From contig JANQIE010000180.1 of assembly GCA_028282295.1 (NCBI GenBank), positions 4,854 through 68,853 on the forward strand: a DNA stretch of 64,000 nucleotides, read 5' to 3'. The translations under genes and the position numbers were made by a program. The notes under the pieces were generated by a model that saw only the letters and a program-made list of their open reading frames with translations, was not told where the DNA came from and ran no database searches. This stretch comes from Desulfobacterales bacterium. GTDB taxonomy: Bacteria; Desulfobacterota; Desulfobacteria; Desulfobacterales; JANQIE01. Positions 38,946-58,127 of this stretch are shown here, one piece after another (positions within the stretch are counted from its first letter, which is position 1; every line of letters begins with the position of its first letter).

Positions 38946-39491
38946 TTAATTATGGCAAGCCAACCAACACCCCAGGTTGGCCCCTTTTTGTTGATGACAC
39001 TCCACGCAGAACCCCATCCAGAAGCGCTTGCCCTTGATCCGGTCCATGGCCTCCACCTTACCGTGGCACTGCTCGCAGGCGATCTGCTTGCGAATATGCC
39101 GCTGGTGGTTGAAAAAGACATGTTCCGGCAGGTAGTTCACCTGGACCCAGGGGGTCGGGGTTTGGGTGTTGAAGTATTCGTGTTCCTTCTGAATCCACGG
39201 ATGTTGGGTGATAATATGTTTGTGGCAGTACAGGCATTTTGCCACCGGCGGCAGACCCGGATGCACCGAGCGGCCCACGTACGGATGGCAGAATTGGCAT
39301 TCGATCTTCTTCACCCCGGCATGCACGCGATGGCTGAACGGAATCGGTTGCTCCGCACCGATGTCCGGCGGCAGGTAGAAAAAGATCAAAAATGCGACCA
39401 CCAGGGCCGCGGTGAGCGCGCTCCAGAAAAGCGGCCCCTTGTTGTCCGCCACCGCTTGGCCCATCCGTTTGAAAAAGGCGGTCTCTTGCAT
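38946..39491 (-). CDS. actA: membrane-anchored pentaheme cytochrome c, ActA-like
   Basis: One TM, then CQFCH, CLYCH, CEQCH, CVECH and a terminal CWLACH (CX3CH). Confidence 0.75.
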   Translation of the reverse strand: MQETAFFKRMGQAVADNKGPLFWSALTAALVVAFLIFFYLPPDIGAEQPIPFSHRVHAGVKKIECQFCHPYVGRSVHPGLPPVAKCLYCHKHIITQHPWIQKEHEYFNTQTPTPWVQVNYLPEHVFFNHQRHIRKQIACEQCHGKVEAMDRIKGKRFWMGFCVECHQQKGANLGCWLACHN

Positions 39492-40657: not shown

Positions 40658-40658
40658 A

Positions 40659-41201
40659 TCAACCTTTTTCCTCGAACACCGTGATTTCGGCGCCTTTTTG
40701 CGTGAAAAACTGTTTCAGTCCGTCTTCCTGTCCGGGCTCGCAGGACGCCAGTAAACCATAATGAAAACCGCTGCAACGCGGGTCGTAATACTCCAGGTTC
40801 TTCAAGCTCGGCAGATTGGTCTGGGTCAGCAAACCGATCACGTTGCCGAACACCGCAAACAGGATCGTGAACTCAAAACCGACGATGAAAAAAGGGATCA
40901 GCGCGACAATCGGCTTGCCGCCGACCACCAGATCCCAGCGGGTGGCGGTGAAGGCCGCCAGGGCAAAACCGCTGAAAAAACCGATGATGCCGCCGGTCAG
41001 GGTAAACCAGCCGACCATGCTTTTTTTCTTCTTGCGGGCGCGGGCCAGTTTCTCGCTCGGCAACGGGCTGTGGACCCGGTGCAGGGTGTACGCGGAGGTT
41101 TCCATGGCCTGCACGGCGGCCGCGGCCTGATCCTCGTCCGTGAACAGACCCATGATGTAACGGTGGGCCTTTTTGAGTTTATGGGCCGCGTTAAGCGCCA
41201 T
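40659..41201 (-). CDS. actD: ACIII subunit ActD (DUF3341)
   Basis: YIMGLFTDEDQAAAAVQAM..., two TM helices and a GGKP motif, as in quinol:cytochrome c oxidoreductase membrane protein ActD. Confidence 0.75.
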   Translation of the reverse strand: MALNAAHKLKKAHRYIMGLFTDEDQAAAAVQAMETSAYTLHRVHSPLPSEKLARARKKKKSMVGWFTLTGGIIGFFSGFALAAFTATRWDLVVGGKPIVALIPFFIVGFEFTILFAVFGNVIGLLTQTNLPSLKNLEYYDPRCSGFHYGLLASCEPGQEDGLKQFFTQKGAEITVFEEKG

Positions 41202-42519
41202 GGTGTCCTCCCTCGTGGACGGTTTCCTTCATTTCGGTCATCGATACCGAAGGCATGTGCTTGGCAAACAGCACGTAGAGAAAAAAGAAAAGACAAAACG
41301 CGCCGAACATGATGCCGAATTCCGTGGCCGTGGGCGTGTAGCGTCCCCAGGCGTGGGGCATAAAATCGTGGGCCACGCCGCCGACGATGATGACAAAGCG
41401 CTCGTACCACATGCCGATGTTGACGAAAATCGAAATCACGAACAGCCACCCCAGGTGTCGCCGGACGGCGCGGAAGAAAAGCAGCATCGGGATCGCCACG
41501 TTGCAGCCGACCATGATCCAGAAACCGTAGGCATATTCGCCCACCGCGCGCCAGCGGAACATCTCCTGCTCCACCGGGTTGTGGCTGTACCACGCGATGA
41601 AGAACTCGGTGCCGTAGGCAAAACCGACGATCATGCCGGTCAGGATGATGGTTTTGGCAACATTTTCGAGCACATCGCGGGTGATGATTTTTTCATACTT
41701 GAACATCTTGCGGATCGGGATCATCAGGGTGATCACCATGGCTAGCCCCGAGTGAATCGCGCCGGCCACGAAGTAGGGTGCGAAAATCGTGGTGTGCCAG
41801 CCGGGGATGATTCCCAGAGCGAAATCCCAGGAGACCACGCTGTGGACACTGATCACCAGCGGGGTGGCCAGGGCGGCAAAAAACAGGTAGCCGCGGGTGT
41901 AGTGACGCCAGTGCTCCAGGCGGCCGGTCCAGCCGAAGGAAAGCAAGGTGAAAATCTTCTTGCGCAGGCCCGTGGCCCGGTCGCGGATCACGGCCAGATC
42001 GGGCAGCATGCCGGTGTACCAGAACAGCGAGCTGACCGTCAGGTAGGTGCTGATGGCCACCACGTCGAACATCAGCGGCGACTGAAAGTTGGGCCACAGC
42101 AGCCGCTGATTCGGCAGCGGCAGCATGTAGTTGACCACCCAGACCCGCCCTAAGTGAATAAACGGATACAGCCCGGCGATGCAGACCGCAAAGACCGTCA
42201 TGGTTTCGGCGGCCCGGGCGATGGGGTTGCGCCACCCGGCCCGGAACAGGTGCAGGATGGCCGAGATCAGCGTGCCCGAGTGGGCAATACCGACCCAGAA
42301 GACAAAGTTTATCAGATAGGTGCCCCAGTTGATCGGGTTGTTCATACCGGCCAGCCCGACCCCCACCAGAATCTGGTGCAACCAGCAGGCGGCTCCGGCG
42401 ATCACACCGGCGAACAAAAGCAGAATCACCAGCCAGTATCCCTTACCGGGTGGCTTCAGGGTATCGAGCACCGTCTGGTCGATTTCAGCGAATGTCAGTT
42501 GTGTTGTTTGATCCGTCAT
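41191..42519 (-). CDS. actC: ACIII quinol-interacting membrane subunit ActC (NrfD/PsrC family)
   Basis: 442-aa polytopic NrfD-like protein. 11-nt overlap with actD. Confidence 0.8.
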   Translation of the reverse strand: MTDQTTQLTFAEIDQTVLDTLKPPGKGYWLVILLLFAGVIAGAACWLHQILVGVGLAGMNNPINWGTYLINFVFWVGIAHSGTLISAILHLFRAGWRNPIARAAETMTVFAVCIAGLYPFIHLGRVWVVNYMLPLPNQRLLWPNFQSPLMFDVVAISTYLTVSSLFWYTGMLPDLAVIRDRATGLRKKIFTLLSFGWTGRLEHWRHYTRGYLFFAALATPLVISVHSVVSWDFALGIIPGWHTTIFAPYFVAGAIHSGLAMVITLMIPIRKMFKYEKIITRDVLENVAKTIILTGMIVGFAYGTEFFIAWYSHNPVEQEMFRWRAVGEYAYGFWIMVGCNVAIPMLLFFRAVRRHLGWLFVISIFVNIGMWYERFVIIVGGVAHDFMPHAWGRYTPTATEFGIMFGAFCLFFFLYVLFAKHMPSVSMTEMKETVHEGGHHGA

Positions 42520-42596
42520 CTTTTATCTTTTATCCAACAGTTTTAGAATTTAACGGTAAAAATCCTTTCATCGGGATTCCCCTCTCCTTGAGGCAT

Positions 42597-42677
42597 AACC
42601 GTCAGGCTAAGGCGATAAACAAATAAAAAAGGTATCCTGTCGTTTAGATTCTGGACCCCGGCCTTCGCCGGGGTGAC
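42597..42677. repeat. 81-bp direct repeat, family D, copy 1
   Basis: AACCGTCAGGCTAAGGCGATAAACAA...CCCCGGCCTTCGCCGGGGTGAC. 74 of 81 positions are identical to 42876-42956. Confidence 0.8.
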
Positions 42678-42778
42678 GGCGTATTTTTTTCTGCGTATTT
42701 TGAGGAATTTTTTAGCTTCCCCCGTATCTGATACGGGGCAAGAATGACGCCTAACCACGATGGGACACCCCCTACTTC

Positions 42779-42805
42779 GTCATTCCCGCGCAGGCGGGAA
42801 TCCAG
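42779..42805. repeat. family C unit
   Basis: GTCATTCCCGCGCAGGCGGGAATCCAG, preceded by GAATGACGCCTAACCACGATGGG as at 36393-36415. Confidence 0.7.
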
Positions 42806-42875
42806 GAAATCTCGCAAAGCTGTCCCGGTGTTATTTTCAAGCTTCGGCATGCAATTGTGCTCACATTTTTTTCTT

Positions 42876-42956
42876 AACCGTCAGGCTAAGGCGATAAACA
42901 ACCGAAAAAGGTGTCCTGTCGTTTAGATCCTGGGCCCCGGCCTTCACCGGGGTGAC
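42876..42956. repeat. 81-bp direct repeat, family D, copy 2
   Basis: See 42597-42677. Spacing between the two copies is 279 bp. Confidence 0.8.
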
Positions 42957-43036
42957 AAGGGCTTGGCGGTTTCATACAAATTATAAAATGATCCCCATCC
43001 GCCGTTTTATCAATTCCAAATTTCCAGTTTCAAATT

Positions 43037-45973
43037 TCAAACCACCAATTTCTGCCGCACCTTCTTCAGATAAATCACCGCCGGCTTGGTGTTCAGATAC
43101 CCCATGATCTGATACGCCCGCGGGTCGTCGAACAGTTGGCGCACGCGGCTGCCGGGGTCCATCAGGTTGCCGAAGACCAGCGCGTCGGTGGGGCAGGTCT
43201 GCACGCAGGCCGGGATGATCTCGCCCTCGCGGATCTTGCGGTTTTCATTTTTAGCGATATCGTGCGCCTGTTTGATGCGCTGGATGCAAAAGGAGCATTT
43301 CTCCATGACACCCTTGCTGCGGGCCGTGACCTCCGGGTTGATCTGCAAATGGGCGGGCGACGGCCACTGCGGCGCGTACCAGTTGAACCGCCGGACTTTG
43401 TACGGGCAGTTCTGGGCGCAAAAGCGGGTGCCGATGCACCGGTTGTAAATCTGGTTGTTCAATCCCTCCTTGGAATGGTGGGGGGCGTACACCGGGCAAA
43501 CCGACTCACAGGGCGCGTTGTTGCAGTGCTGGCACATGAGCGGCAAAAAAGTGATGTTGCGTTCATCGTCCTGGTCCAGGTAGCGCTCGATGCTGATCCA
43601 GGACATCTCCCGGCCTTCCAGAATCCGCTCTTCCTGCACTACACTTAAATTGTTCTCCGCGTAACAGGCCGCCGAGCACGCCCCGCAGCCGATGCAGCGA
43701 TCCATGTCCACAGCCATGGACCAGCGGTAATCGATATGTTCATGGGCCGGGTAGAAGTCCCGTTCCCTGGGGCTGTACCCTTCGGGCAGCGGCAGGACCT
43801 TGGGAAAGTCGTGCATGGTCAGGCCGGGTTTGACCTTGGGCAGCCCCCGAGCCAGCTTCTCGCGGTCGACGGTCAGCGCAATTTTGCGGCCGTGCATCAC
43901 GCGGCTGCTGGCGGTTTGGGCCAGTTGCAAACTGTGCCCGGCGGCTTTGATGCTGACTTTGCCGATGCTGAACTGCGGTGCGCCGGCGGCGCTCCCGGCG
44001 GCCGTCGGCAGCAAGGCCAGCGGATTCGCACCGTTTTGAGCGGCGTAGCGGCCGTAGGCCGTGTGGCCCTGGCCCTGATGGAGCACCAGGACGCCCGGCC
44101 TGATGCCAACTGTTTCATACACCGGCGCCTGCACCTTGCCGTGGGGCGATTCGATCTGAATCACATCGCCCTCTTCGACCCCATACCGGCCGGCATCTTC
44201 CGGGTGCATCCAGACCGGCGACTGCCAGGCCACCCGAGTGGTCGGGTCCGGGATTTCGTTCAACCACGACCGGTTGGCGCCGCGCCCGTCGAAAAAGCGA
44301 ATCGACGGTGCCGCCACCAGCAGCGGTTCGGTGGGTGGGGTTTTGCTTTGGGTCAACGCCGACGGAATCCGGCGTGGCAGGTTTAATGCGGGCTGCTGCA
44401 TTGGCGCGGGCGGCTGGAAGTGTCCGCCGTCTTTGATGATAGCGATCCAGTCGCGTTCGGATTTGAGACGGCCCTGTTGCTCCAGTTGGGCCGATATGTA
44501 GGCTTTAAACTGATTCAACGGCCAGCGGCCTTTAAAAGCCAGCCGCAGGAACAGGTCGCCCAGGTCCGGGGCTTCGGTGAATTTGCCCATGGCCGGTTGC
44601 AGCGTGGACACCAGACCGGTCTGGCCGTTGTAATCATCCCAGGATTCCAGCGGCAGCTTGACCGGCAGGATCAGATCGGCCAGGGCGGTGGTTTCATCTT
44701 CAAAATTGCTCAGGGCCACCACGAACAGGTCCGGGTTTTTGAGCGCTTGTGTAATGGCCGGGTTGGCCGGCATGGCGAACACCGGATTGACATTGTTCAG
44801 CAGCAGCACGCGGGCCGGTGTGCTGCGCAGGTTTTCAAAAAATGCGATTACTTCGGCGCGCGTGGCGGCTTGCTCCACCCGATGCCGGTTTTGAAAATCG
44901 ATGCGCGTCAGCTTGGGATCGAGCACGAGGTTGAGCAGATTGGCCGCCATGTCGGTGGCCAACCCGTTGACCGCGCCGTTTTCCGCGCCCAGGATTAACG
45001 GCTTGCGGGCCGCTAGCATGCGGTCGGCCAGGGCGGTCAGATCTTCGCGGGTCAGACCGCTTTGACGGACAGCCTGCTCCTCGGTGATCCCGGCGGCAAA
45101 CGTGGCCAGGGCCCCGCGCAACGCGCTTGGCAGGGGTTGCCCCCGGCCGGCGTTCAGCGCCCGTCCGATCAGGTAGCCGGCCACGGCCGCCTGACAGCCC
45201 GGCCGGCAGGCCAACCAGCGGTCCGCGTTGGCGGCGGTAAGCGACTGGTAGGGGCCGACGTGCACAAACAAGCCCTTGCGCCCGTTGGCCAGCGCGTGCA
45301 TGGCCTTGAATTGGCGGGCATATTCAACCGGCGACAACCAGGTTTCCAAAAAATCGGCCCCCAGGCAGATCAGGCAATCGGCCTGATCGATGCGATAGCC
45401 CGGCAGTCCATCCAGGCCGAAAATGGCGCGGTTGGCCGCTTTCAGGGTTTCATAGGCAAAGGGTTCAAAAAAGACGGGCGGCCCGGATTGCCACGTCTGC
45501 AAGGCTTCGGTGAACAAGGCCGTGCGGCTCGGACCCGACACCTCTGAAAGCATCCGCACCGGGTTGGCATCGGTTGCGGCGACTCCCTGAAGTTTGGCCC
45601 GGAGCAGTTTTTCGGCGTCGTCAAAAGAGACCGGTTGCCACCGGCCGTCCTGCCTGAGCCGGGGCGTCATGAGCCGATCCGGGTTGTAGACCGCCTGCAG
45701 GGCTGCCTGACCGCGCAGGCAGAGCTTGCCGCGGTTGATTGGATGCAAGGGATTGCCTTCCAGCTTTATCACGCGACCCTCGCGGTTTTTGGCCAAAACA
45801 CCGCAACCGGCCGGGCATTCGCGGCAGGTGGCGGCATACCAGGTCGCTTGACCGGTGACCATGTCGTCCGGGGCTTGAACCAGACTGTAAAGGGTTTTGT
45901 CGGGTTTGCCACAACCCGAGGCAAAGGCGAAACTGCCCATACCGGCAATCTTGAGGAAGGTGCGCCGATTCAT
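43037..45973 (-). CDS. actB: ACIII subunit ActB (molybdopterin-oxidoreductase-like domain fused to 4Fe-4S ferredoxin domain)
   Basis: Tat signal MNRRTFLKIAGMGSFAFASGC. N-terminal CRECPAGCG...C Fe-S motif. C-terminal CIGCGACSAAC, CQHCNNAPC and CIGTRFCAQNCP cluster motifs. 978 aa. Confidence 0.85.
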   Translation of the reverse strand: MNRRTFLKIAGMGSFAFASGCGKPDKTLYSLVQAPDDMVTGQATWYAATCRECPAGCGVLAKNREGRVIKLEGNPLHPINRGKLCLRGQAALQAVYNPDRLMTPRLRQDGRWQPVSFDDAEKLLRAKLQGVAATDANPVRMLSEVSGPSRTALFTEALQTWQSGPPVFFEPFAYETLKAANRAIFGLDGLPGYRIDQADCLICLGADFLETWLSPVEYARQFKAMHALANGRKGLFVHVGPYQSLTAANADRWLACRPGCQAAVAGYLIGRALNAGRGQPLPSALRGALATFAAGITEEQAVRQSGLTREDLTALADRMLAARKPLILGAENGAVNGLATDMAANLLNLVLDPKLTRIDFQNRHRVEQAATRAEVIAFFENLRSTPARVLLLNNVNPVFAMPANPAITQALKNPDLFVVALSNFEDETTALADLILPVKLPLESWDDYNGQTGLVSTLQPAMGKFTEAPDLGDLFLRLAFKGRWPLNQFKAYISAQLEQQGRLKSERDWIAIIKDGGHFQPPAPMQQPALNLPRRIPSALTQSKTPPTEPLLVAAPSIRFFDGRGANRSWLNEIPDPTTRVAWQSPVWMHPEDAGRYGVEEGDVIQIESPHGKVQAPVYETVGIRPGVLVLHQGQGHTAYGRYAAQNGANPLALLPTAAGSAAGAPQFSIGKVSIKAAGHSLQLAQTASSRVMHGRKIALTVDREKLARGLPKVKPGLTMHDFPKVLPLPEGYSPRERDFYPAHEHIDYRWSMAVDMDRCIGCGACSAACYAENNLSVVQEERILEGREMSWISIERYLDQDDERNITFLPLMCQHCNNAPCESVCPVYAPHHSKEGLNNQIYNRCIGTRFCAQNCPYKVRRFNWYAPQWPSPAHLQINPEVTARSKGVMEKCSFCIQRIKQAHDIAKNENRKIREGEIIPACVQTCPTDALVFGNLMDPGSRVRQLFDDPRAYQIMGYLNTKPAVIYLKKVRQKLVV

Positions 45974-46278
45974 AGCGTTTTGAGGCCCTCCGATCTGTCG
46001 CTCTCGCTCCTGTGAGTTAGGGCTGGCAATGTCAAAAATGGGGTCGGTTCAAATTGTTAACGTGAATCTCGTTGCGAGTTGTCAGGTTTGTAAAAAAACG
46101 GATAGTATAAAATATTCGCAATTCCGGCCGAGTATAATCAAAGCCATTTATCCTGTCAAGCTGCATGATACGTTGTGGCAGGGTCGCCGCCTATTTTAAA
46201 TATCGCTTTGTTGACAAGCAGGCCGGGTTGCAATAGCCATGACATTGAAAAACAGGAAAAGGGGGCGGAGGTAGCATT

Positions 46279-46581
46279 ATGCCGTTTGTTCAAGAACCGA
46301 CCGGATACGAAAAAACGATTCTTTCCGATCTTCAGGGGGCGTGGGGTGGCCTGCGCGAATCGATCGTCGAGGCCGCGGGATTTAACAGGTGGGACCGGGC
46401 GTTGTTTCATGTCGATGAGGCGATGAGTTGGGAGGTGGTCCGTAACCTGCGCCTGATGCCGCCGTTGCTGCTGATCATCAAAAATATCTGCACCCAGGGC
46501 AAAGCCCCGGCGGAAGTATTGGCGAATGTCCGGGCTGTTGATGAGATTCTGCATGAAACCTTTGAGAGTTATCCGCTTTGA
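46279..46581 (+). CDS. hypothetical protein (100 aa) adjoining the CRISPR leader
   Basis: GGAGGT SD 6 nt before the ATG. Balanced composition. No motif recognised; the C-terminal RAVDEILH is only loosely HEPN-like (Rx6H). Confidence 0.5.
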   Translation: MPFVQEPTGYEKTILSDLQGAWGGLRESIVEAAGFNRWDRALFHVDEAMSWEVVRNLRLMPPLLLIIKNICTQGKAPAEVLANVRAVDEILHETFESYPL

Positions 46582-46762
46582 ACGCATACGATCGCGTTTA
46601 GGTCCGACCGGACACCATGCTTTTCGGTTGACAAGCCATCCAAATGTGATCACAAAAAGGGCTATGAAAATGCATTGCCGCTGCCGGCCGAAAGTCGCCA
46701 AAAAAGTTGGTAAAATTTGTGCTCTGAAAAAAGCCCTGTGATTTCGGAAAGTTCCAGAAAGA

Positions 46763-47404
46763 GTGTTCCCCGCGCGTGCGGGGATGAACCGTCCTCTTTG
46801 GTAATTTCACCGAGACGGCGTCCGTGTTCCCCGCGCGTGCGGGGATGAACCGCCACAGAGCTATTTAGCGGAGAATCTGCGCACGTGTTCCCCGCGCGTG
46901 CGGGGATGAACCGGGGCGAAAAACCAATTATCGCCAGTTTAATTTAGTGTTCCCCGCGCGTGCGGGGATGAACCGAGCTGCCCCATACCCATCGTCCAAC
47001 GTAACAACGTGTTCCCCGCGCGTGCGGGGATGAACCGGCAGTTCTATCAACATTCCTTTCGGAATATACGTGTTCCCCGCGCGTGCGGGGATGAACCGCC
47101 TGATGGTACGGTGGCGAAAATGACCGCCCGGTGTTCCCCGCGCGTGCGGGGATGAACCGGATTGCTTTAGGCTTTTGCCCGTATGCAGCATGTGTTCCCC
47201 GCGCGTGCGGGGATGAACCGCCCTTGGGTTCGGAACCAAACGAAATGGTCAACGTGTTCCCCGCGCGTGCGGGGATGAACCGGTTGCGTAACGTGCCCGG
47301 AAAAATCGAGGAAAGTGTTCCCCGCGCGTGCGGGGATGAACCGGAGTCGGGGCAGGAAAAAAATGGGAGGGCCCCATGTTCCCTACACGCGTGGGGATAA
47401 CGCG
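46763..47404 (+). CRISPR. type I-E-like CRISPR array: 11 repeats of 29 bp and 10 spacers of 32-33 bp
   Basis: Repeat GTGTTCCCCGCGCGTGCGGGGATGAACCG starts at 46763, 46824, 46885, 46947, 47009, 47070, 47131, 47192, 47254 and 47315. A degenerate last repeat ATGTTCCCTACACGCGTGGGGATAACGCG lies at 47376-47404, so the leader should be on the 46.6-46.76 kb side. Confidence 0.95.
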
Positions 47405-50227: not shown

Positions 50228-50309
50228 ATCGGTTTGCGCAACCTCCTTGATTGGGGTTCGGTGCCTGCGCCGGTCGCGTGGTGATGGTTTGGCGACCGGG
50301 TCCTTATCA

Positions 50310-50362
50310 GTGTCCATCCGGAAAACAGCACCTTTTGGTCCAGGCCGGCGTTCTCACGAATT
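50310..50362. repeat. truncated MITE family A copy (left ~53 nt)
   Basis: GTGTCCATCCGGAAAACAGCACCTTTTGGTCCAGGCCGGCGTTCTCACGAATT matches the reverse complement of the right half of copy 15218-15360. Confidence 0.65.
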
Positions 50363-50403
50363 TGAAGTAATGGCGCAGCCATTCAGTTCTTGCGACGTAG
50401 CTT

Positions 50404-50546
50404 GTGTCCATCCGGAAATAGCATCTTTTGGCCCCTGGCGGCGTTCTCACATTTTTAAAATCCTCGGCAGTAGCGCGCTATGCCTGCGGTTTTAAAAATG
50501 TTCGGACCTTGCCAGGAACCAAAATCTACTATTTCCGGATGGGCAC
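50404..50546. mobile_element. MITE family A, full copy (143 bp)
   Basis: GTGTCCATCCGGAAATAGC ... CTACTATTTCCGGATGGGCAC, about 40 nt after the truncated copy. Confidence 0.85.
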
Positions 50547-50774
50547 TAAATAGCAGTGTCACGTGCGTCAGCGGGAAAATTCCGGCCGGTACGATGAAAC
50601 GGTTTGCACGGCAGGTTGCGATATGACAACCTAATTTTCATATCGGACAATCGGCGGTAATATTGACTTTTTTTTGCGGTGGAATCGAATTTGAAAATCG
50701 GTGGTGGGTAAAGGGCGGCAATGACGCCGGTTGACGGCAGACGCACTACCTTGCCTGGTGGTGTTGGTGCGTGT

Positions 50775-50808
50775 CAGGAACTCAAAAATGTTATTTTCGG
50801 ATGGGCAC
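50775..50808. repeat. solo right end of MITE family A
   Basis: CAGGAACTCAAAAATGTTATTTTCGGATGGGCAC. The adjacent CTAG supplies the stop of the 71-aa ORF on the minus strand. Confidence 0.6.
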
Positions 50809-51023
50809 TAGCTTCTTCGCTCCATGCCGCTACGCCGCCCGCTACGTTTGCGCCTGTCGAAACCGCTACGGCGGTCCCGGCCGGTGCGGCGCTCGGGGAT
50901 TGTAACCGCAAATTGAAACTGCCTTCGCTCGATACCGATCCGTCGTCCGCCGTAGTCGATGGGCGGTACGTCCCTGAACATGATATGCTTAAGCGGGTCG
51001 CTTTCTTTTTTATATGTTTGCAT
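50808..51023 (-). CDS. 71-aa Arg-rich protein with (D/E)RR repeats
   Basis: ...FAVTIPERRTGRDRRSGFDRRKRSGRRSGMERRS. This IPERRxGxDRR-type repeat recalls small proteins seen in deltaproteobacterial genomes (recalled, not verified). Weak SD. Confidence 0.45.
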   Translation of the reverse strand: MQTYKKESDPLKHIMFRDVPPIDYGGRRIGIERRQFQFAVTIPERRTGRDRRSGFDRRKRSGRRSGMERRS

Positions 51024-51342
51024 ATCTTCCGCCGTTGGTGCGGCCCGATGACCGCTTTTAGAGAAAAGGAAGTGGATGAATTTGACTGTTGTCGTGTAGA
51101 GCTGTTTCGTTCAGGTAGCATGCAGTGTGATTGAAATTTAAACCTAACGGATGGCGCCCACATTTGTCTATAGGCAATAGACCCTAAATTGTTGGGGGAA
51201 ACCCCCCAATCATATATTTTTTGAACCGGCAACCGACTATCGGTGGCAATTGCGAACCCTTAGTTTCAGCTTTGTGCGGTTTACGGCGCCATCTAGTTTG
51301 CATACCCTTACGTTAAGCTCGATATCCTACCCGTCAATAGCC

Positions 51343-52335
51343 CTAAAGTTGATCGGGGGCCACATAGTGCGCCAACATGCGTTGCGCCTCGGACCGGACC
51401 GTCGCCTGCAATTCTTTCGGCGCCAGGACGCGGGCCTGGGCGCCCCAACGTAAAATCCAATATTTGATTTCATCCAAACCGGCTACCTGGGCTTCGAAGA
51501 TTACCGATCCGTCGTCCTGCGCGGTGATCTGCTGGCTCGGGTGCCAGGTGCGTTCCTTGATGTAGCCGGCCACTGCGGCCGAAAAGCGGATACGGACACG
51601 TACGTCTTCACCCTGGAAGATGCCGAAGCTTTTCGCCAGCATGTCTTCGGGCGAAAAATGTTCCGGGATCTCATATTCTTGTTCGGTAATCGTCAGGCTG
51701 CGAATCCGTTGCGGCACAAAGGTGCGTACTTCCTCGCGCAGGCCGCAGTAGGCGATCAGATAAAATATGCCGTTACAAAACCAGAGTTTATACGGCGCTA
51801 CTTTCCGGCGGGTGACCTCGTTGCGGCCCATGCTGTGGTAGTCGATGGTCACCCAGCGCCGATCCAGGATCGCCTGGTTCAGCTCCGCCAGGTAGTTGCC
51901 GGCTTTTAACGGGGCGCCGGTCGACACCCGGCCGACCTGCAGGCTGTTTTCGATCTGCTTCAGGAAGGTCATGTAGTCTTGGGGCAGGGTGGCTTTTAGT
52001 TTTTGAAACAGCGATTCGATGGCTTCATGGAAGAAGGTGTTCTCCAGGGCGCGAAGCAGGCCGCGTCCGAAGTAAAGCGCCATCAGTTCGGTAAGGTTGA
52101 GCGGCAGCGGCATTTGATGCTTGGCCCGGTCTAGGATCAACCAGCGGTTGGCGCCGTCCTCACGTTCGCAGTAGAGCGGAAAACCGGCGAATTCCAGCGC
52201 TTGCAGATCGCGATACACCGATCGCGAGTGACATTCAAGCCGGTCGGCCAGTTCGTTGACGGTGCATCCCCGGTGGGACTGTAACAGGGTCTGGATGATT
52301 TTCCACTGACGTCCAAGTTGATCGCCGCGCGCCAT
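51343..52335 (-). CDS. HTH + WYL domain transcriptional regulator (YafY-like)
   Basis: N-terminal winged HTH (RGCTVNELADRLECHSRSVYRDLQALE). Central WYL-type region (VAPYKLWFCNGIFYLIAYC). AAGGAGA SD 16 nt after the stop of the upstream giant gene. Confidence 0.8.
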   Translation of the reverse strand: MARGDQLGRQWKIIQTLLQSHRGCTVNELADRLECHSRSVYRDLQALEFAGFPLYCEREDGANRWLILDRAKHQMPLPLNLTELMALYFGRGLLRALENTFFHEAIESLFQKLKATLPQDYMTFLKQIENSLQVGRVSTGAPLKAGNYLAELNQAILDRRWVTIDYHSMGRNEVTRRKVAPYKLWFCNGIFYLIAYCGLREEVRTFVPQRIRSLTITEQEYEIPEHFSPEDMLAKSFGIFQGEDVRVRIRFSAAVAGYIKERTWHPSQQITAQDDGSVIFEAQVAGLDEIKYWILRWGAQARVLAPKELQATVRSEAQRMLAHYVAPDQL

Positions 52336-52351
52336 AGGGTCTCCTTTGTGT

Positions 52352-55300
52352 TCAGCCGGTGCGGTGGTAGTCTGTCTGCGTGTGAACCCGTGCTTTGCGG
52401 GGGTAGTGCAGATACGGGATGATTTTGTCGTTTTTCGGCCCGCCGGTGCCGTCGTAGGTCACCGATACTACCGGAACACCGGTCAGGGTTTCGATGCGCG
52501 CGGCCATGGCCTCGGTCACCAGACTCGGGCAGCACAAGGCCGGGCTGACCTGAACGAACAGCGCCAGGTCCGGTGTGTGCTTGTGGATATAATGAACTTT
52601 GAGCACATTGTCCATCGATTCGCCGGTATTTTCGATGCGCATGCCGTAGCGCTTCAAGACCGCTTCGGCCGGATCGTCGTAGACGGCCATGGGTTCATGC
52701 AACAGACGTTCGAAATACCGGTAGTAGGTTTTTTCCAGCGGGCTCATGGTGGCCAGGATGGTTTTGCCGGAAAAGACGTTCAGGTACTTGCCTTCGTTGA
52801 ACCATTTGCGAAAGTAGGGCCCGGCGATCATTTTGGCGTATTCGGTGTAGGGGGTGGTCACCACTTCGCCGCCGTGGGCTTCGATAAACCGGATCAGGTT
52901 CTGGTTCATTACGGCGTTGTCGCGGGTGTACAGGTCGCCGAACAGGGCCACCTTGGGGCGGCGGTAAGGGGTGCGGATGCGCATGGCGGTAAAGCGGGCG
53001 ACCATTTTTTCCAGGACCGGCTCCTTGGCCGTGTTGTTCAAAAAGGCGTCGTAAAATTCCGCCAGGGTCGCGTCCACGGCCGCGTCCACCCGGCCGGCGT
53101 CGCGCTCACAGGGTCTTAAGCGGCAGGCCACCCGGCGCAGCAGGCCGCCGAGCATGTAAGCAAAATAAGCGTCCCGGGCGGCCCGTAACGAGATATCCGT
53201 GAACGACAGGGCGCCGACGTAAACCCCGGCCTGTGCCAGGCCGTGACCGTGGGCGCGCAGGATGTTTTTGATCTGGTGCGGATAGAGCCGGATGTTGCAG
53301 GCAATTTCCGACCGGCCGACCCACAGGGTGGTTTGGGCCGGGTCCAGATTGTGGGCCCGGATGCAGTCGATGTAGCCCTGGGCAATGGCGTTCATCGGGA
53401 TGCACTGGCCGGTGTTGTGGCGCATGCTGCGTTGGATCGAGGTCGGCGTTTCGGTCATCAGCACAGCGTTGAAACCTTCGCGGCGCAGATTGGCTTCCAG
53501 CAGTTTACCGCACAAGCGGTCCCAGTTGGGCAGGACGACGTTGGGGCGGCTCAGCTTTGGTTCGAGGTCCGGATTGATCGGGGCCGGGTCGATGGCTGTT
53601 ACGACATCCTGCCGGGTGTGATGGTTCCGGAAGGCACGGACGGCTGCTTCGATGCGGGTTTCGTAACCCACGCTCGAGTCGTGCTCGTCGAGTTCCAGGA
53701 TCAGATAGGGTTTGTTGTGCGCTTCCAGCACCTGCTTGAAATAACCGGTCAGGTAGGAGTCGGGTGAGCATTTGAACGATGTGAGCAGGACCGGGTAGAG
53801 TCCCGGCATGCCTGCGACCACGTAGGCAGCCTCTAAAATGCGCACGGCGTAGTCCCAGGGCATCTGTGCCAGTAGGGGGCGAATGGCGGTCACTTGTTCA
53901 GGGTTATAGGGCAGCATGTCCTGGTAAAAACAATCGATCTGTTTCTGATGAAAGATGGACGGGATGTGGTGGTTCAAGGCGGGCGACAAGACCGTGTAGG
54001 GGCGCCCGAGCAGCATGATCCGGATGTCGGCGCCGTTGGTGGTGAACCGGTTGCGAAAGAGCTGTTGCAATTGTTGCCGGCGGGTCTGCCCGGCGGCCAC
54101 GGCGGTGTCGTAGGCCGCGGCGACTTCAAAAAAACCGGGGCCCTGGGGCAGGATGCGTCTGAGCATCCGGTACAGTTCGATTTTGGTGAAAAAGCTGGTG
54201 TAAAGGTAGTCGAGCACCGGGGTGAGCAGTTGGGCTGCCATGGTCGGCCGCATCCCGGCGGCCAGGGGCGGCGCAAACTGGGTATAGTAGCAGTATTGTC
54301 GCCGCTGACCTTTTATCCGGCTTTTCTTTTCCAGGTAGTACGGCCAGAAGATGTAGTCGGCTTTCGTGCGCAGGGCCTCGACATGGCCGTGCATGGCGGC
54401 CATGGGGGCGCAGAATTCGGCGCCGGCGAGCTTTTTGCCGGCGGTTACGGCGGTGGTGTTTGCCGTGCTGGTGACAGTGGGGATGCCGAGCCGCGCGAAA
54501 AAGGTTTGCCACATGTCAAGGTCCGCCAAAAGCGGGCCGGCCGCCGGCAGGCCGACAATCACGCTATGGGTTTCGGGTACGGCCGGTTGGGGCGCAGGCT
54601 TGAGCTTGCGGCGTGCCCGCATCAGGTGAAAGGCGTTGTTTTTGATTTTGGCGTGTTGCCTGGTGTCGTAGTCGCGGCCGCATAAAAAGCCGTAGGCCAC
54701 GGTTTCACCGGCAACGTCGGCCACGCTGAGTTTGCAGTGGTTGGTGCACAGGTCGCAGGTTTCAGTGCGTGTCGGGATTTGCCGGCGATAAAGACCCAGA
54801 CCGCGAAACCGGGTGACAGTGGCGGTCGACAGGTGCGCGGTTTCATCCATGTGGAGCAGGGCGCATCCCATGGCGCCGGTCAGGTGGCAGTAGCGGGATA
54901 CCAGGATCGGTTTTTTCAGTCGTTGCTCAAAGGCCGCCACCAGGGCCTTGTTCTTGGCGGTGGCGCCTTGAAAGAAGATGGTGTTGCCGATGCGGCTTGG
55001 GGTGGCGACTTTCAGCAGGTAGTTTTCCCGCACGGCATGCAGGACCGACGCGAGCACATCGTCGACCGCGCGGCCTTCGGCCAGGTGGTGATTGAGGTCG
55101 CGTTCCATGAACACGGTGCAGCGGTCGCTGGTCATGGGCGCCCGGCGGCCCTGGGTGCGCTGGGTGAACGCGTCGAGTGGACAGCCGAGTTTGCGGGCCT
55201 GTTCCTCGATAAAGCTGCCGGTGCCGGCGGCGCAGACGGTGTTCATGGTGGCCGAGGTGACCATGCCGTTTTTCAGGGTGGTGAATTTGGCGTCCTGGCC

Positions 55301-56635
55301 GCCTATTTCGAAGATGGTGTCGACGTCCGGATTGAGTTCACAGGCGGCTCTGGCGTGCGCGGAAATTTCGTCGAGCACCAGGTCGGCGCCCAGAACAGCG
55401 CCGATAAAATGGCGGCCCGAGCCGGTGGTGGCGCATCCGGTGATGTTGAAGCAGGTGTGGCGCCGCCGCGCCAGATCATCGATGGCCGCCAGGATGTGGC
55501 GGGTTGCGGTGAGCGGGTCGCCGGCGGTGCGGGTGTAAAAGCCGGCCAGCACCTCGTGCTGCGCATCGAGCAGTACCGCCTTGGTGCTGGTGGAGCCGAT
55601 ATCGACCCCCAAGGTAACCGGACGGGCAACAGGGGTGGACAGCTCGGCATACACATCGACTTCCACCGGGTTGTTTGTGCTGCCGGTCACCTGCGTTCGA
55701 TTGAACAGGTAGCGCTCGCGGCTGGTGAAATCCGGGTATGCACTGAGCTGAAGCGCCAGCGGGGGGTAGGTGTTGCGTGAAGCGGTCCGGGAATTTGTGA
55801 TCAGGTCGGCCGCCCGGCTGATGTTCAGAGGTGCGGTGGTGATCCGGCCGGGATGGGTGCCCAGGGTGACGGCGGCGCCCAGGGCCCCGAACAGATTGGC
55901 ATGGGCCGGGACGCGCAGATCCGCACCGGTGAGAGCCGCGATATGTTCGACCACCCGCCGGTTCAGGGCCACACCGCCGCACAGCACCACCGGCGCCGCA
56001 ATGGGGTCGCCTTGAAACACCGTGTCGACGATATTTCTGGCCAAACCGTGGCACAGGCCGTCGGCAATCTGTTCCAGCCGGTAGCCTTGCTGTTGGGCGT
56101 GGATCAGGTCGGTTTTGGCGAAAACCGCGCAACGCGAGGCGATTTGCGGGCGTTTGCCGGCGTTGCCCGCGGCCAGCACGGCCAGGGCTTCGGCATCGCT
56201 AAGATTCAAACGGCGGGCCTGCTGGTCCAGAAAACTGCCGGTACCGGCGGCACAGGACGTATTGGTGTGGGTGCCGCTATAGCCGCCCTGCGCATCAAAC
56301 CGGATCAGGTAGAATTTTTCGCTGCCCACATATAAAATGGCGCCGGTTTCGGGGTGCAGATGCCTGGCAGCGGCAATGCAGCAGATCTGGTGGTCGTAGC
56401 GGCCGGTGTGTACGATGGTGTTGGGGGTGTCCGAGGTTACGGCCACATGATCGACACGGGTCAGGTCAAAGGCATTCAGCAACCGCCACAATGTTTGCCG
56501 AATATCGCCGTGGTGAAAGTCGTAGGCGGTTTGCGCAATGGCCGGGGTGGTGTCCGACGGGCCGTACTTCAGGGCAACGATACCGATGGCTGCCGAGCCG
56601 ATATCGACGCCCAACACGTGCAAGGGGGCCGGCAT
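52352..56635 (-). CDS. 1427-aa acyl-CoA-dehydratase-activase-related fusion protein (2x BcrAD/BadFG/HgdC ATPase plus 2x DUF2229/HgdB-like)
   Basis: Two ASKHA ATPase units (VLGVDIGSAAIG and TLGVDIGSTSTKAV). Each carries the cluster-ligand pair CAAGTGSF and C(A/T)VF. C-terminal half has CDLCTNHCKL. Start trimmed to ATG 56635, 5 nt after GGAGG. Confidence 0.8.
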   Translation of the reverse strand: MPAPLHVLGVDIGSAAIGIVALKYGPSDTTPAIAQTAYDFHHGDIRQTLWRLLNAFDLTRVDHVAVTSDTPNTIVHTGRYDHQICCIAAARHLHPETGAILYVGSEKFYLIRFDAQGGYSGTHTNTSCAAGTGSFLDQQARRLNLSDAEALAVLAAGNAGKRPQIASRCAVFAKTDLIHAQQQGYRLEQIADGLCHGLARNIVDTVFQGDPIAAPVVLCGGVALNRRVVEHIAALTGADLRVPAHANLFGALGAAVTLGTHPGRITTAPLNISRAADLITNSRTASRNTYPPLALQLSAYPDFTSRERYLFNRTQVTGSTNNPVEVDVYAELSTPVARPVTLGVDIGSTSTKAVLLDAQHEVLAGFYTRTAGDPLTATRHILAAIDDLARRRHTCFNITGCATTGSGRHFIGAVLGADLVLDEISAHARAACELNPDVDTIFEIGGQDAKFTTLKNGMVTSATMNTVCAAGTGSFIEEQARKLGCPLDAFTQRTQGRRAPMTSDRCTVFMERDLNHHLAEGRAVDDVLASVLHAVRENYLLKVATPSRIGNTIFFQGATAKNKALVAAFEQRLKKPILVSRYCHLTGAMGCALLHMDETAHLSTATVTRFRGLGLYRRQIPTRTETCDLCTNHCKLSVADVAGETVAYGFLCGRDYDTRQHAKIKNNAFHLMRARRKLKPAPQPAVPETHSVIVGLPAAGPLLADLDMWQTFFARLGIPTVTSTANTTAVTAGKKLAGAEFCAPMAAMHGHVEALRTKADYIFWPYYLEKKSRIKGQRRQYCYYTQFAPPLAAGMRPTMAAQLLTPVLDYLYTSFFTKIELYRMLRRILPQGPGFFEVAAAYDTAVAAGQTRRQQLQQLFRNRFTTNGADIRIMLLGRPYTVLSPALNHHIPSIFHQKQIDCFYQDMLPYNPEQVTAIRPLLAQMPWDYAVRILEAAYVVAGMPGLYPVLLTSFKCSPDSYLTGYFKQVLEAHNKPYLILELDEHDSSVGYETRIEAAVRAFRNHHTRQDVVTAIDPAPINPDLEPKLSRPNVVLPNWDRLCGKLLEANLRREGFNAVLMTETPTSIQRSMRHNTGQCIPMNAIAQGYIDCIRAHNLDPAQTTLWVGRSEIACNIRLYPHQIKNILRAHGHGLAQAGVYVGALSFTDISLRAARDAYFAYMLGGLLRRVACRLRPCERDAGRVDAAVDATLAEFYDAFLNNTAKEPVLEKMVARFTAMRIRTPYRRPKVALFGDLYTRDNAVMNQNLIRFIEAHGGEVVTTPYTEYAKMIAGPYFRKWFNEGKYLNVFSGKTILATMSPLEKTYYRYFERLLHEPMAVYDDPAEAVLKRYGMRIENTGESMDNVLKVHYIHKHTPDLALFVQVSPALCCPSLVTEAMAARIETLTGVPVVSVTYDGTGGPKNDKIIPYLHYPRKARVHTQTDYHRTG

Positions 56636-56933
56636 ACATACCTCCACTTGTAAAGTTGGTTGAAACCAAAATACACGGTTGTGATTTACGGACGGTGGTG
56701 TGCAGGTCGAGGGACAGGCGGCCAGCAAGAGGATGACCGCTTAACCTTGGTCCCTGCCTATGGGCAATTATCTATCAATCTTGACAGGATGCGTCAAATT
56801 ATTTGGTTCCGGCGTGTTAATCAAACAATAATATTGAACATATACTGGTGGTGTGTTGTAATTTTGACTTATGACCATTTCAGGATGCGATGCGAATTTA
56901 AAGAACCGATTGAAGAAGGTGGACAAGACAGCC

Positions 56934-57197
56934 ATGAAGTCATTCGAAGCACTGTTTAGTGAACTGAAACAAAAGGCGGCGGAGCGACCGGCCGGTTCGA
57001 ACACGGCCCGTTTGTTGGCCGCCGGCAAGCATGCCATCGGCAAGAAAATCATCGAGGAAGCCGGAGAGGTTTGGATGGCGGCGGAGTATGAAGGCAAGGC
57101 CAAAACCGCCGAGGAGATCAGTCAACTGCTGTATCATCTGCAGGTCATGATGGTCGCCTGCGAGCTGGAACCGGAAGATATTTACAAGTACTTGTAG
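56934..57197 (+). CDS. hisE: phosphoribosyl-ATP pyrophosphatase
   Basis: [28 protein letters not shown]...[10 protein letters not shown]...[14 protein letters not shown] is typical of HisE. Start trimmed to ATG 56934. Confidence 0.85.
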
Positions 57198-57269
57198 CCG
57201 CACGTTCCCGCAGCGGAACGCGGGGTGTCACGGTGACTCTGGTTTTTTGAAGGGATTGTTGGAAAGGCA

Positions 57270-58127
57270 ATGGACATGTTGCAGATAGCGTTACCAAACA
57301 AGGGGACCTTGTCGGAGGAGACGGTGCGCCTGATCAGGGAGGCCGGGTACCAGTGCCGTCGCTATAGTCGCGAGCTGGTGGTGCGCGACAAGGATGCCGG
57401 CATCGAGTTTGTTTTTTTGCGCCCGCGTGATATAGCGATTTACGTCAGCAGTGGTGTCATCGATTTGGGCATCACGGGACGGGATCTGGCCGTCGACAGT
57501 AAGTCGGTTTATGAAGAATTGTTGGCTTTGCGTTTCGGCCGTTCGGCGTTTTATTACGCGGTGCCCCGGGAAAAGGAGTTGACGGTGGATGATCTGGACG
57601 GCCTGCGGATCGCCACCTCGTATCCGAACCTTGTGCGCGCCGATATCGCGGCGCGGGGCTGCAACGCCACGGTGGTCAAACTCGACGGCGCAGTCGAAAT
57701 TTCGATTCGGCTTGGTGTGGCCGATGTCATCGCCGATGTGGTGGAATCGGGCCGCACCATGACCGAGGCCGGTCTCAAACCGGTCGGTGAGCCGTTACTG
57801 CGATCCGAGGCCATCGCCATCGCCCAAAACAAGGCGGTTCTGGCGCATGAAACGGCCGAGATGTTCATCCGGCGGCTGAAGGGAATTGTTGTCGCCCGGG
57901 AATATGTGATGGTGGAATACGACGCCCCCGAACATCTCATCGAGATGGCCTGTGTCGTGACACCGGGTATCGAAGCGCCCACAATCTCGCCGCTGAGCCG
58001 CAAGGGGTGGGTGGCGATCAAGTCGATGGTCAGGAAGGTCGAGTTGAACGCGATCATGGATAAATTGGCGGCCCTGGGCGCCAAAGGGATTATCGTTACG
58101 GATATTCGGACATGCCGCATCAATTAG
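57270..58127 (+). CDS. hisG: ATP phosphoribosyltransferase (long form)
   Basis: MLQIALPNKGTLSEE..., DLGITGRD, and a C-terminal regulatory domain. The start may be ATG 57276, which has better SD spacing. Confidence 0.9.
   Translation: MDMLQIALPNKGTLSEETVRLIREAGYQCRRYSRELVVRDKDAGIEFVFLRPRDIAIYVSSGVIDLGITGRDLAVDSKSVYEELLALRFGRSAFYYAVPREKELTVDDLDGLRIATSYPNLVRADIAARGCNATVVKLDGAVEISIRLGVADVIADVVESGRTMTEAGLKPVGEPLLRSEAIAIAQNKAVLAHETAEMFIRRLKGIVVAREYVMVEYDAPEHLIEMACVVTPGIEAPTISPLSRKGWVAIKSMVRKVELNAIMDKLAALGAKGIIVTDIRTCRIN

Follow-up and report, generated by a model that had tools for sequence, protein, structure and literature searches.

A giant double-activase gene is followed by a WYL regulator gene

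The window (the whole 64,000-nt stretch of Desulfobacterales DNA that was analyzed) carries on its minus strand a giant gene with a WYL-domain regulator gene directly behind it (Table 1). The ORF of the giant gene, 52352-56728, opens with TTG, and an in-frame ATG at 56635 yields a protein of 1427 amino acids; this ATG is supported as the start because homologues, among the matches listed, align from query residue 1 to 8. The stop codon (TGA) lies at 52354-52352 and the WYL gene begins with ATG at 52335. The sequence confirms the first-pass annotation of an HTH-WYL gene that shares the strand of the giant gene, follows it after 16 nt, and has its own AAGGAGA SD.

TABLE 1 Features of the giant gene, the WYL gene, and their flanks (positions in the window)
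Feature	Position	Strand	Description
G+C-rich hairpin, possible transcript end	51191..51210	strand-neutral	About 130 nt past the WYL stop; T-run on the + strand side
HTH_11-WYL-WCX regulator gene	51343..52335	minus	330 aa; nearest solved relatives DriD, PafBC
Spacer, giant-gene stop to WYL ATG	52336..52351	minus	acacaAAGGAGAccct; 16 nt; SD AAGGAGA at 52340-52346
Giant gene	52352..56635	minus	1427 aa + stop; fused PlsA/PlsR-Ger-family enzyme, clade A
HAD/BCR/DCCP-like module 2 (PlsR-equivalent)	52400..53548	minus	Residues ~1030-1412; invariant C1078, C1113, C1368
HAD/BCR/DCCP-like module 1 (DUF2229)	53612..54556	minus	Residues ~694-1008; invariant C742, C782, C956
Cys4 motif	54680..54757	minus	C627-x2-C630-x3-C634...C652; invariant in clades A and B and in Listeria/Collinsella PlsA
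Activase unit 2	54842..55615	minus	Residues ~341-598; C468 and C506
Activase unit 1 (ASKHA, HgdC-like)	55868..56623	minus	Residues ~5-256; C128 and C169
Inverted repeat TTGGTT-GA-AACCAA	56656..56669	strand-neutral	21-34 nt upstream of the giant-gene ATG
TTGAC-N7-GTCAA palindrome, candidate WYL site	56781..56797	strand-neutral	147 nt upstream of the giant-gene ATG, 74 nt upstream of the hisE ATG

Pfam detected two stretches of BcrAD_BadFG (PF01869; E 6.6e-61) in the giant protein, followed by DUF2229 (PF09989) at residues 694-908 (E 1.2e-33), an order that constitutes the "BBD" core. Both activase units can be aligned to 1HUX, 4EHT, and 9GAI_D. Their motifs are SCAAGTGSF (C128) and RCAVF (C169) in the first unit and VCAAGTGSF (C468) and RCTVF (C506) in the second; C128 and C169 fall in register with the cysteines that hold the cluster in HgdC (1HUX) and HadI (4EHT), and both pairs are invariant among the 16 homologues compared. 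The protein thus combines the ASKHA fold with the two cluster-bridging cysteines that mark HgdC-type activators ("archerases"). Two HgdC/BcrAD-type ATPase units with Cys pairs, ahead of an HgdB-like, Cys-rich C-terminal half, had been proposed at first pass, and Pfam, the motifs, and the Cys alignment bear this anatomy out; every motif quoted there (CAAGTGSF, CxVF, and CDLCTNHC, the last at residues 627-634) is found in the 1427-aa ORF.

The C-terminal half is an internally duplicated module

Searches of the C-terminal half against PDB chains by sequence and by profile returned no match; fold search alone succeeded. The AF2 model of residues 600-1427 (pLDDT 84) gave DCCP, MbdO/N, BzdO/N, and HadC as its best PDB folds (Foldseek, probability 1.0 each). 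Modules 1 and 2 are homologous copies (hhalign probability 96.7%, E 4e-10), so that the model, this alignment, and a Cys triad in each copy together identify a second HgdB/PlsR-like module C-terminal to DUF2229. Ten cysteines of this half are invariant across clades A and B (see below) and the Listeria and Collinsella proteins. The Cys4 motif sits within a small beta-rich subdomain, where model confidence is low.

The protein does not fit a 2-hydroxyacyl-CoA dehydratase proper (HgdAB/HadBC): PF06050 (HGD-D) reaches 17.5 bits, short of its cut-off of 28.4, and over residues 955-997 only; the chain is fused instead of being split into alpha and beta subunits; and a profile search with the C-terminal half returns no PDB match. 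The activase units do align to the activators of such systems (HgdC, HadI, MbdQ, and DCCP-R, from HgdAB/HgdC, HadBC/HadI, class I benzoyl-CoA reductases, and DCCP/DCCP-R), whereas the giant protein fuses all parts in one chain with the activase duplicated in tandem.

The giant protein belongs to the PlsA/PlsR-Ger family

Two PF01869 domains, PF09989, and a second HgdB-like module define the family of PlsA/PlsR plasmalogen synthases and Ger glycerol ester reductases. These oxygen-sensitive enzymes of anaerobes convert sn-1 acyl esters of membrane lipids to vinyl or alkyl ethers, and heterologously validated members exist (PMC13159169, PMC12838417, PMC9702350); their substrate is a membrane lipid ester, in contrast to the acyl-CoA of the dehydratase and benzoyl-CoA reductase systems. 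The BBD core is reported for all alkyl-ether producers and for the Ger enzymes validated from T. maritima and D. alkenivorans (PMC13159169), single-gene PlsA measures 4248-4311 bp (PMC12838417), and active pls orthologues are reported from Listeria (PMC9702350). The first-pass statement that the substrate of such fusions is unknown is thus outdated.

By description, the giant protein resembles Ger (T. maritima Tmari_0479/AGL49404; D. alkenivorans SHJ90043) and Ger2 (SHK01260), which are likewise single chains of ~1400 amino acids; Ger combines two PF01869 domains with PF09989 and an additional HgdB-like region, and is found in anaerobic Desulfobacterota with several homologues per genome (PMC13159169, PMC11150832). 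Domain order and size are also those of PlsA/PlsR (C. perfringens CPE1194-1195; fused PlsA of E. faecalis, L. cremoris, B. longum, and Listeria), oxygen-sensitive members of the BCR/HAD family. Sequence comparisons covered relatives of the heterologously validated enzymes (SHJ90043, AGL49404, Q8XL48/Q8XL47, Q835P9).

Among the sequences compared, a 1475-aa PlsA-type protein of L. monocytogenes, WP_014600632.1, matches residues 9-975 (E 5e-70, 26.6% identity), and a PlsA-type protein of Collinsella matches likewise. We take WP_014600632.1 to be the Listeria pls gene product reported as active, and through it the giant protein would have significant homology to an ether-lipid-linked member. The ten cysteines of the C-terminal half and the activase Cys pairs are common to the giant protein and Listeria/Collinsella PlsA, whereas overall identity is ~25% and the Listeria alignment fades past about residue 1250.

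Overall, the giant gene represents a described family in the ordinary way, and what is idiosyncratic is its local gene setting. The reading that we favor, and hold to be somewhat probable from the sequence evidence, is that its product is a single-chain PlsA/PlsR-Ger-family ether-lipid enzyme and that the WYL gene came to stand behind it by accident, in this lineage. Against the first part stand the low identities to Listeria/Collinsella PlsA and to clade B (27-35%); against the second, the two genes lie on one strand with a gap of 16 nt, and an upstream palindrome resembles the box, all of which would be compatible with a real regulatory link to WYL.

In the favored reading, the two N-terminal HgdC-like ATPase units form an intramolecular pseudo-dimer, with C128, C169, C468, and C506 at the positions that in HgdC hold the bridging [4Fe-4S] cluster. 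By analogy with the family, the pseudo-dimer would accept a low-potential electron, and ATP hydrolysis would drive its injection into the C-terminal half, an internal duplication of the HgdA/B-BcrB/C-DCCP fold with one Cys triad per copy and the Cys4 motif ahead. There, a membrane glycerophospholipid would be reduced at the carbonyl of its sn-1 acyl ester, and the product would be either a saturated alkyl ether or, once water is lost, a vinyl ether (plasmalogen). Sequence cannot tell which of the two is made, and PlsA and Ger are indistinguishable at this level (PMC13274423, PMC11868695).

For annotation, this means that proteins of ~1400 amino acids labeled "CoA-substrate-specific enzyme activase" or "acyl-CoA dehydratase activase" are better read as PlsA/Ger-family ether-lipid enzymes than as orphan radical enzymes. 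With this locus, one further Desulfobacterota-like organism, sampled in a coral metagenome, joins those that have the genetic potential to make non-isoprenoid ether lipids, a class on which biomarker studies draw (alkyl glycerol ethers, brGDGT precursors).

The giant protein falls in a distinct clade of the family

Two deep clades, A and B, make up the family together with a Firmicutes/Actinobacteria PlsA group, and validated members are found in some of these only. The giant protein belongs to clade A, and some residual uncertainty attaches to what precisely this clade catalyzes. The two paralogues of D. alkenivorans share 25.9% identity; expressed in E. coli, Ger yielded ether lipids and Ger2 gave none, a negative that according to its authors may reflect inclusion bodies (PMC11150832).

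It is possible, if rather unlikely, that clade A is a functionally distinct paralogue of the Ger2 type, which has kept the electron-injection machinery for another substrate or a specialized step; this may be, for example, sn-2 etherification or action on another ester or lipid, perhaps with a partner protein. The 27-35% identity between clades A and B fits that between Ger and Ger2, and Ger2 expressed alone yielded no ether lipids. Ger, the first PSI-BLAST pick with PlsA queries, probably belongs to clade B because Listeria/Collinsella PlsA aligns with clade B at higher score and over the full length; the giant protein may then be of the Ger2 type, since clade B is closer to PlsA and has stronger and repeated matches to PF06050 and PF09989 compared with the clade A protein. 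A conserved 157-aa gene of unassigned function lies directly upstream in 15 clade-A loci.

The placement of Ger and Ger2 on the two clades is itself inferred, and molecular weight, hydrophobic segment, and Pfam match pattern gave conflicting hints, none of which discriminated between clades for Ger and Ger2. The inclusion bodies could account for the Ger2 result, and the clades have in common all ten cysteines of the C-terminal half as well as the two activase Cys pairs. Clade A is present, among the matches listed, in Spirochaetota, Bacteroidota, and Desulfobacterota, phyla that make ether lipids, which also argues against a separate function.

The WYL pairing is a one-off

Pfam matches to HTH_11 (2.1e-10), WYL (1.8e-19), and WCX (2.7e-23) place the WYL protein in the HTH-WYL-WCX class, and its best PDB matches are 8TP8 and 9PFQ (each E~1e-12) and 6SJ9. 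DriD (Caulobacter) and PafBC (Actinobacteria) have the same architecture, although similarity to them is low. The junction with the giant gene was found in DNA runs only, from coral metagenomes, and is not an assembly artifact, because a 12.5-kb contig (run X1) and a 755-nt contig (X2, from a different study) each span it. Co-transcription of the two genes is plausible from the sequence: the 16-nt spacer is too short for a terminator, and a crude scan for sigma-70 promoters and terminators found nothing between the genes or upstream of the giant gene.

The first-pass annotation had called the pairing with a radical/redox activase unusual. In a neighborhood survey of 163 loci, a WYL gene lay near 0 of 46 clade-A and 3 of 117 clade-B homologues; the latter represent at least 2 lineages and differ in orientation (convergent, divergent), and the two closest clade-A homologues (59% identity) have other neighbors. 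The pairing is therefore a one-off and not a conserved module. Taken as a whole, the earlier interpretation keeps its anatomy and the WYL adjacency, while the unknown substrate, the operator, and the accessory stretch find no support; judged by the grounds for refutation that it had itself named, its claim to novelty mostly fails.

Ten loci carry orthologues of the WYL gene without the giant gene. At seven of these, the orthologue faces a small divergent ORF, and five of the seven share a conserved box, TGACAGATnCGGTCA, in the upstream divergent region (one such box is GTGACAGATCCGGTCAC); its spacing is fixed relative to the small ORF (about 65-93 nt) and not to the WYL gene. DriD controls the small gene didA in a similar arrangement. 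Elsewhere, then, the WYL orthologues most likely control a divergent small-protein operon, and partner and box together point to a concrete candidate regulon for this family. Of the usual neighbors of WYL orthologues (NUDIX, aminotransferase, CN-hydrolase, SprT, aldo-keto reductase, cytochrome c3, small ORFs), none is present in the window, the small-ORF partner included. In the favored reading, the gene encodes a stand-alone regulator of the DriD/PafBC type, has come to lie right behind a lipid gene, and probably owes at least part of its transcription to read-through.

Palindromes upstream of the giant gene

An inverted repeat, TTGGTT-GA-AACCAA, had been put forward as an operator. It does not exceed chance, because 0.22 copies are expected per window and it occurs in 19 of 100 shuffles; any 6+6 inverted repeat within about 130 nt is not rare, and this one was not found upstream of homologues. 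TTGAC-N7-GTCAA would be the better candidate for a WYL site. It shares TGAC cores and spacing with the orthologue box, and its sole perfect copy in 64 kb (0.11 expected per window) falls within the 235 nt that precede the giant gene. The shorter form TGAC-N7-GTCA is present in 5 copies against 0.67 expected; it was rejected as a regulon motif, as 4 of the 5 lie within genes or between co-directional genes.

These features could suggest that the giant and WYL genes form an autoregulated operon in which the WYL protein binds TTGAC-N7-GTCAA and couples ether-lipid remodeling to a sensed signal. We consider this quite unlikely. The shared strand, the short gap with nothing terminator- or promoter-like inside it, the boxes at five orthologue loci, and the single perfect palindrome would all suit such an operon, as would the WYL genes that flank clade-B homologues at three loci and the dedicated adjacent TetR regulators of pls in E. 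faecalis (PMC9702350) and Collinsella; the giant gene lacks the TetR-type neighbor of PlsA loci and has the WYL gene downstream instead. On the other side, the candidate site agrees with the box consensus at 12 of 15 positions, which is chance level (6 observed, 4.1 expected at that stringency), and the box keeps its distance to the divergent small ORF, whereas the site here lies 74 nt from hisE. The empty clade-A survey and the varied clade-B orientations also count against it. A more specific form, in which a WYL sensor relocated behind a clade-A gene autoregulates the two-gene operon via this palindrome and makes ether-lipid (or other) chemistry ligand-switched, is very doubtful; if true, it would establish a new link between a stress-sensing WYL regulator (responding to ssDNA, damage, or a phage signal, for example) and membrane lipid remodeling.

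The neighborhood is mostly housekeeping

The pair had been assigned to an accessory stretch with an orphan CRISPR array and PIN-PhoH2. No Rfam family matched anywhere in the window, and no discontinuity in GC content was seen at gene boundaries. The flanks are mostly housekeeping genes (hisE/hisG, MCP, alternative complex III [ACIII], and cbb3 oxidase), and independent assemblies break at a very high-copy repeat between the WYL gene and PhoH2, which the proposed link would have to cross. A defense-associated regulator of the BrxR/CapW type does not fit, as none of the ten orthologue loci has adjacent defense genes and the giant protein matches no PADLOC model. That the pair belongs to a defense or accessory island, with a defense- or CRISPR-linked redox enzyme under WYL control, is extremely improbable: the CRISPR array (46763-47363) and PIN-PhoH2 do lie within 5 kb, and CRISPR-type PADLOC WYL models do match the WYL protein (E 1e-41), but the giant protein lacks such a match, the flanks and the assembly break speak against an island, and the WYL orthologues, at 50-54% identity, occupy non-defense contexts.

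A further PlsA/Ger family member encoded by the giant gene

The giant-gene open reading frame opens with a TTG codon and contains a downstream in-frame ATG (Table); because alignments with homologs begin at residues 1 to 8, the ATG, with GGAGG positioned 7 to 11 nt ahead of it, is the right start. Every motif quoted in the first-pass annotation was found in the sequence, and Pfam and NCBIfam recovered its layout of two BcrAD_BadFG/"acyl-CoA dehydratase activase" units and a DUF2229 domain (residues 694 to 908). Activase unit 1 can be aligned to HadI (4EHT) and HgdC (1HUX), with C128 and C169 in register with the cluster cysteines, and unit 2 to MbdQ, HadI, and HgdC.

Table. Features of the giant gene, its surroundings, and the clade-B WYL neighbors
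Feature	Position	Strand or orientation	Description
Giant-gene ORF	56728 (TTG) to stop 52352; in-frame ATG 56635	minus	1427 aa from ATG
Giant-gene stop (TGA)	52354-52352	minus	followed by acacaAAGGAGAccct, then the WYL ATG
WYL gene	51343-52335	minus	330-aa HTH_11-WYL-WCX protein
hisE	56871-57197	opposite to giant gene	108 aa, stand-alone; PRA-PH, E 2.5e-11
hisG	57270-58127	divergent from giant gene	long form, HisG + HisG_C; directly after hisE
TTGGTT-GA-AACCAA	56656-56669		14-bp palindrome
TTGAC-AGGATGC-GTCAA	56781-56797		found by search for the WYL-ortholog box
CRISPR array	46763-47363		at least 10 repeats of 29 nt (GTGTTCCCCGCGCGTGCGGGGATGAACCG), 61-62-nt period
High-copy repeat	50251-50752 (core ~50320-50550)		seen in assembler depth
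Clade-B WYL gene, locus L119	10336-11307		HTH-WYL-WCX, first or second neighbor
Clade-B WYL gene, locus L128	10302-11630		HTH-WYL-WCX, first or second neighbor
Clade-B WYL gene, locus L153	627-1598		HTH-WYL-WCX, first or second neighbor

[quoted passage not shown] For Ger, a "modified PlsA" from T. maritima and the sulfate reducer D. alkenivorans, anaerobic expression in E. coli yields 1-O-alkyl glycerol ethers; its layout is two PF01869 domains and one PF09989 domain, followed by small PF09989/PF06050 matches, and the "BBD" core of this layout is kept in all alkyl-ether producers (PMC13159169). By Pfam, the giant protein has exactly this core. Its relatives form more than 7600 clusters, the best of which (53 to 59% identical; Desulfobulbaceae, Desulfobacterales, and Nitrospirota) carry no annotation beyond "CoA activase." By luck, through mislabeled chromosome pieces, tblastn of a plasmid collection also returned a 1475-aa L. 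monocytogenes protein (E 5e-70, residues 9 to 975) and a 1593-aa Collinsella protein. In Collinsella aerofaciens, a TetR-like regulator gene (L169:4021-4731) lies 12 nt upstream of the latter gene, in agreement with the TetR/AcrR regulator upstream of E. faecalis pls (PMC9702350).

The C-terminal half is predicted to be a duplicated HgdA/B-like fold

In an alignment of 29 C-terminal halves from all clades, ten cysteines are invariant (C627, C630, C634, and C652; C742, C782, and C956; C1078, C1113, and C1368). No PDB chain matched this half by sequence or profile search. The structure prediction proposed for residues ~650 to 1427 was run on residues 600 to 1427 with AlphaFold2 (pLDDT 84, pTM 0.85), and the HgdB-like region of the first-pass annotation was borne out as a duplicated HgdA/B-like fold. 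Over ~430 columns, equal to one of its halves, the model matches with probability 1.0 DCCP (the double-cubane cluster protein), the class I benzoyl-CoA reductase catalytic subunits MbdO/N and BzdO/N, and HadC of 2-hydroxyisocaproyl-CoA dehydratase. In a profile-profile comparison, residues ~685 to 1014 match ~1024 to 1419 (probability 96.7%, E 4e-10), pairing C742 with C1078. Together, the fold matches and the homology between modules identify the C-terminal half as an internally duplicated HgdA/B-like pseudo-heterodimer with a Cys4 element ahead of it.

Clade A may correspond to Ger2

Among the matches listed, 163 related loci form two deep groups: clade A, with 46 loci 39 to 59% identical to the giant protein (Desulfobacterota, Spirochaetota, and Bacteroidota), and clade B, with 117 loci 27 to 35% identical (many phyla, including Scalindua and Thermodesulfatator). 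The Listeria/Collinsella PlsA proteins, ~25% identical, are a third group. PlsA and Ger are considered inseparable by sequence (PMC13274423, PMC11868695). D. alkenivorans Ger and its paralog Ger2 show 25.9% similarity across 96% of their length (PMC11150832), a distance that fits one paralog per clade. Listeria/Collinsella PlsA aligns to clade B over its full length (~530 to 670 bits) and to clade A at ~330 to 520 bits, with the alignment stopping near residue 1250; the stronger, repeated PF06050/PF09989 matches occur in clade B Desulfobacterota. Both patterns suggest that validated Ger, the paralog first found with PlsA queries, more likely belongs to clade B, and that clade A may be of the Ger2 type. 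Ger2 alone produced no ether lipids, which together with this placement of Ger would fit a distinct reaction in clade A, but that negative result is possibly due to inclusion bodies (PMC11150832). Because we infer the mapping of Ger onto the clades, we lean only modestly toward the giant protein being an ether-lipid enzyme and consider a distinct clade-A reaction less likely.

In 15 clade-A loci, a conserved gene of ~157 aa without a Pfam family sits immediately 5' of the giant gene and shares its strand (L083:2110-2583, L005:9525-9998, and L002, L006, L029, L034, L084-L087, L089, L091, L092, L095, and L117). Its product ends in ...GW(K/F)xG(V/L)xxFWxE(I/V)K(D/E)KL and may serve clade-A enzymes as an accessory subunit; the 64-kb window lacks the gene, as do some other clade-A loci.

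Local rearrangement as the probable origin of the giant-WYL pairing

The short spacer described between the giant gene and the WYL gene is present as annotated. A 12.5-kb contig from sequencing run X1 is identical to the window across 50522-57500, and a 755-nt contig from a second study spans 52037-52791, so that independent contigs confirm the junction. The gap is too small for a terminator, and a crude scan found no promoter between the genes; on this geometry, read-through co-transcription of the WYL gene is likely. A G+C-rich hairpin lies ~130 nt past the WYL stop. The sequence comes from a coral metagenome, and no RNA runs containing it were found.

Among solved structures, the regulator is best matched by DriD (8TP8), 9PFQ, and PafBC (6SJ9) (E ~1e-12). 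Among the best 120 of its ~1500 relatives (49 to 54% identical), those with a named source are annotated as Desulfobacterales or Desulfobacteraceae. A neighborhood survey with tblastn and a family HMM indicated that the pairing is not kept. None of the 46 clade-A loci has a WYL gene adjoining the giant gene (at least 1.2 kb covered downstream in 37 and upstream in 41), and the two closest homologs have unrelated neighbors. Three of the 117 clade-B loci have one nearby, convergent with the giant-type gene in the related L119 and L128 and divergent in L153, with one gene between. Identity of these WYL genes to that of the window and to each other is ~30% (L119 versus L128, 66%), and their number is not clearly above chance (roughly 1 to 2 expected per 164 loci, assuming ~10 such genes per genome).

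None of 10 WYL-ortholog loci carries a giant gene. Seven instead encode a divergent 54- to 63-aa ORF (L164, L165/L166, L171, L174, L175, and L176) with conserved YEYHGNTxIExTRRQ...DWxLFDSVEEAxxYFN, followed in five of the seven (L165, L171, L174, L175, and L176) by a 100- to 129-aa ORF; neither has a Pfam match, and neither partner is found within the window. A similar arrangement is that of DriD and didA, the small gene it controls. A box, (G)TGACAGATnCGGTCA(C), lies 65 to 93 nt from the small-ORF start in five loci (L164, L165/L166, L171, L174, and L175) and was not found in L176. With no clade-A counterpart and orthologs that have other partners, the giant-WYL pairing is, within the sample, confined to this lineage. 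Local rearrangement probably made the two genes neighbors, and a real regulatory link between them is unlikely.

The palindrome proposed as an operator is present but was rejected as operator evidence: its single copy in the window compares with 0.22 expected, it appears in 19 of 100 shuffles, and no copy lies upstream of 27 clade-A homologs or of the WYL orthologs. The candidate TTGAC-N7-GTCAA site, a lead rather than a finding, is the single perfect copy in 64 kb (0.11 expected) and falls within the 235 nt that separate the divergent giant gene and hisE, 74 nt from hisE, the "small-ORF distance." It shares the TGAC/GTCA cores and spacing of the box but just 12 of 15 consensus positions, a stringency at which the window holds 6 matches versus 4.1 expected, which is chance level. 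The shorter TGAC-N7-GTCA occurs five times (19240, 20821, 34138, 49837, and 56782; 0.67 expected), a count attained in 0 of 100 shuffles; as four copies lie within ORFs or between codirectional genes, no regulon is claimed from the excess.

Genomic context

The giant-WYL region, described as an accessory stretch, is not clearly an island. On one side, hisE and hisG are followed by a Cache/CZB chemoreceptor and a nitroreductase; past the WYL gene come ~1 kb of repeats, PIN-PhoH2, WrbA, the CRISPR array, and alternative complex III/cbb3 oxidase genes. The latter (36625-45973; ActB-like, NrfD/ActC, ActD, and a FixO/FixP-like fusion) suggest that the organism probably meets oxygen. The PlsA/Ger-type family is reported to be oxygen sensitive, and probable exposure may bear on lipid-gene regulation.

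The high-copy repeat reaches depths of ~16,000×, 1,300×, and 380× in runs X1, X2, and X3, versus 27×, 5×, and 1× in its flanks, with numerous variant joints and loose ends. Inside it are a 66-nt imperfect inverted repeat (50404-50469/50481-50546) and direct copies (50323-50366/50416-50459 and 50510-50548/50772-50810), and it resembles a MITE- or REP-like element with hundreds of copies. Because every independent short-read contig ends there, the physical link between the WYL gene and PhoH2/CRISPR is less secure than the giant-WYL link. No cas genes were recognized among the tested neighbors of the CRISPR array: the 181-aa ORF at 46156-46701 has no family match, and the 978-aa ORF at 43037-45973 encodes an ActB-like molybdopterin/Fe-S protein.
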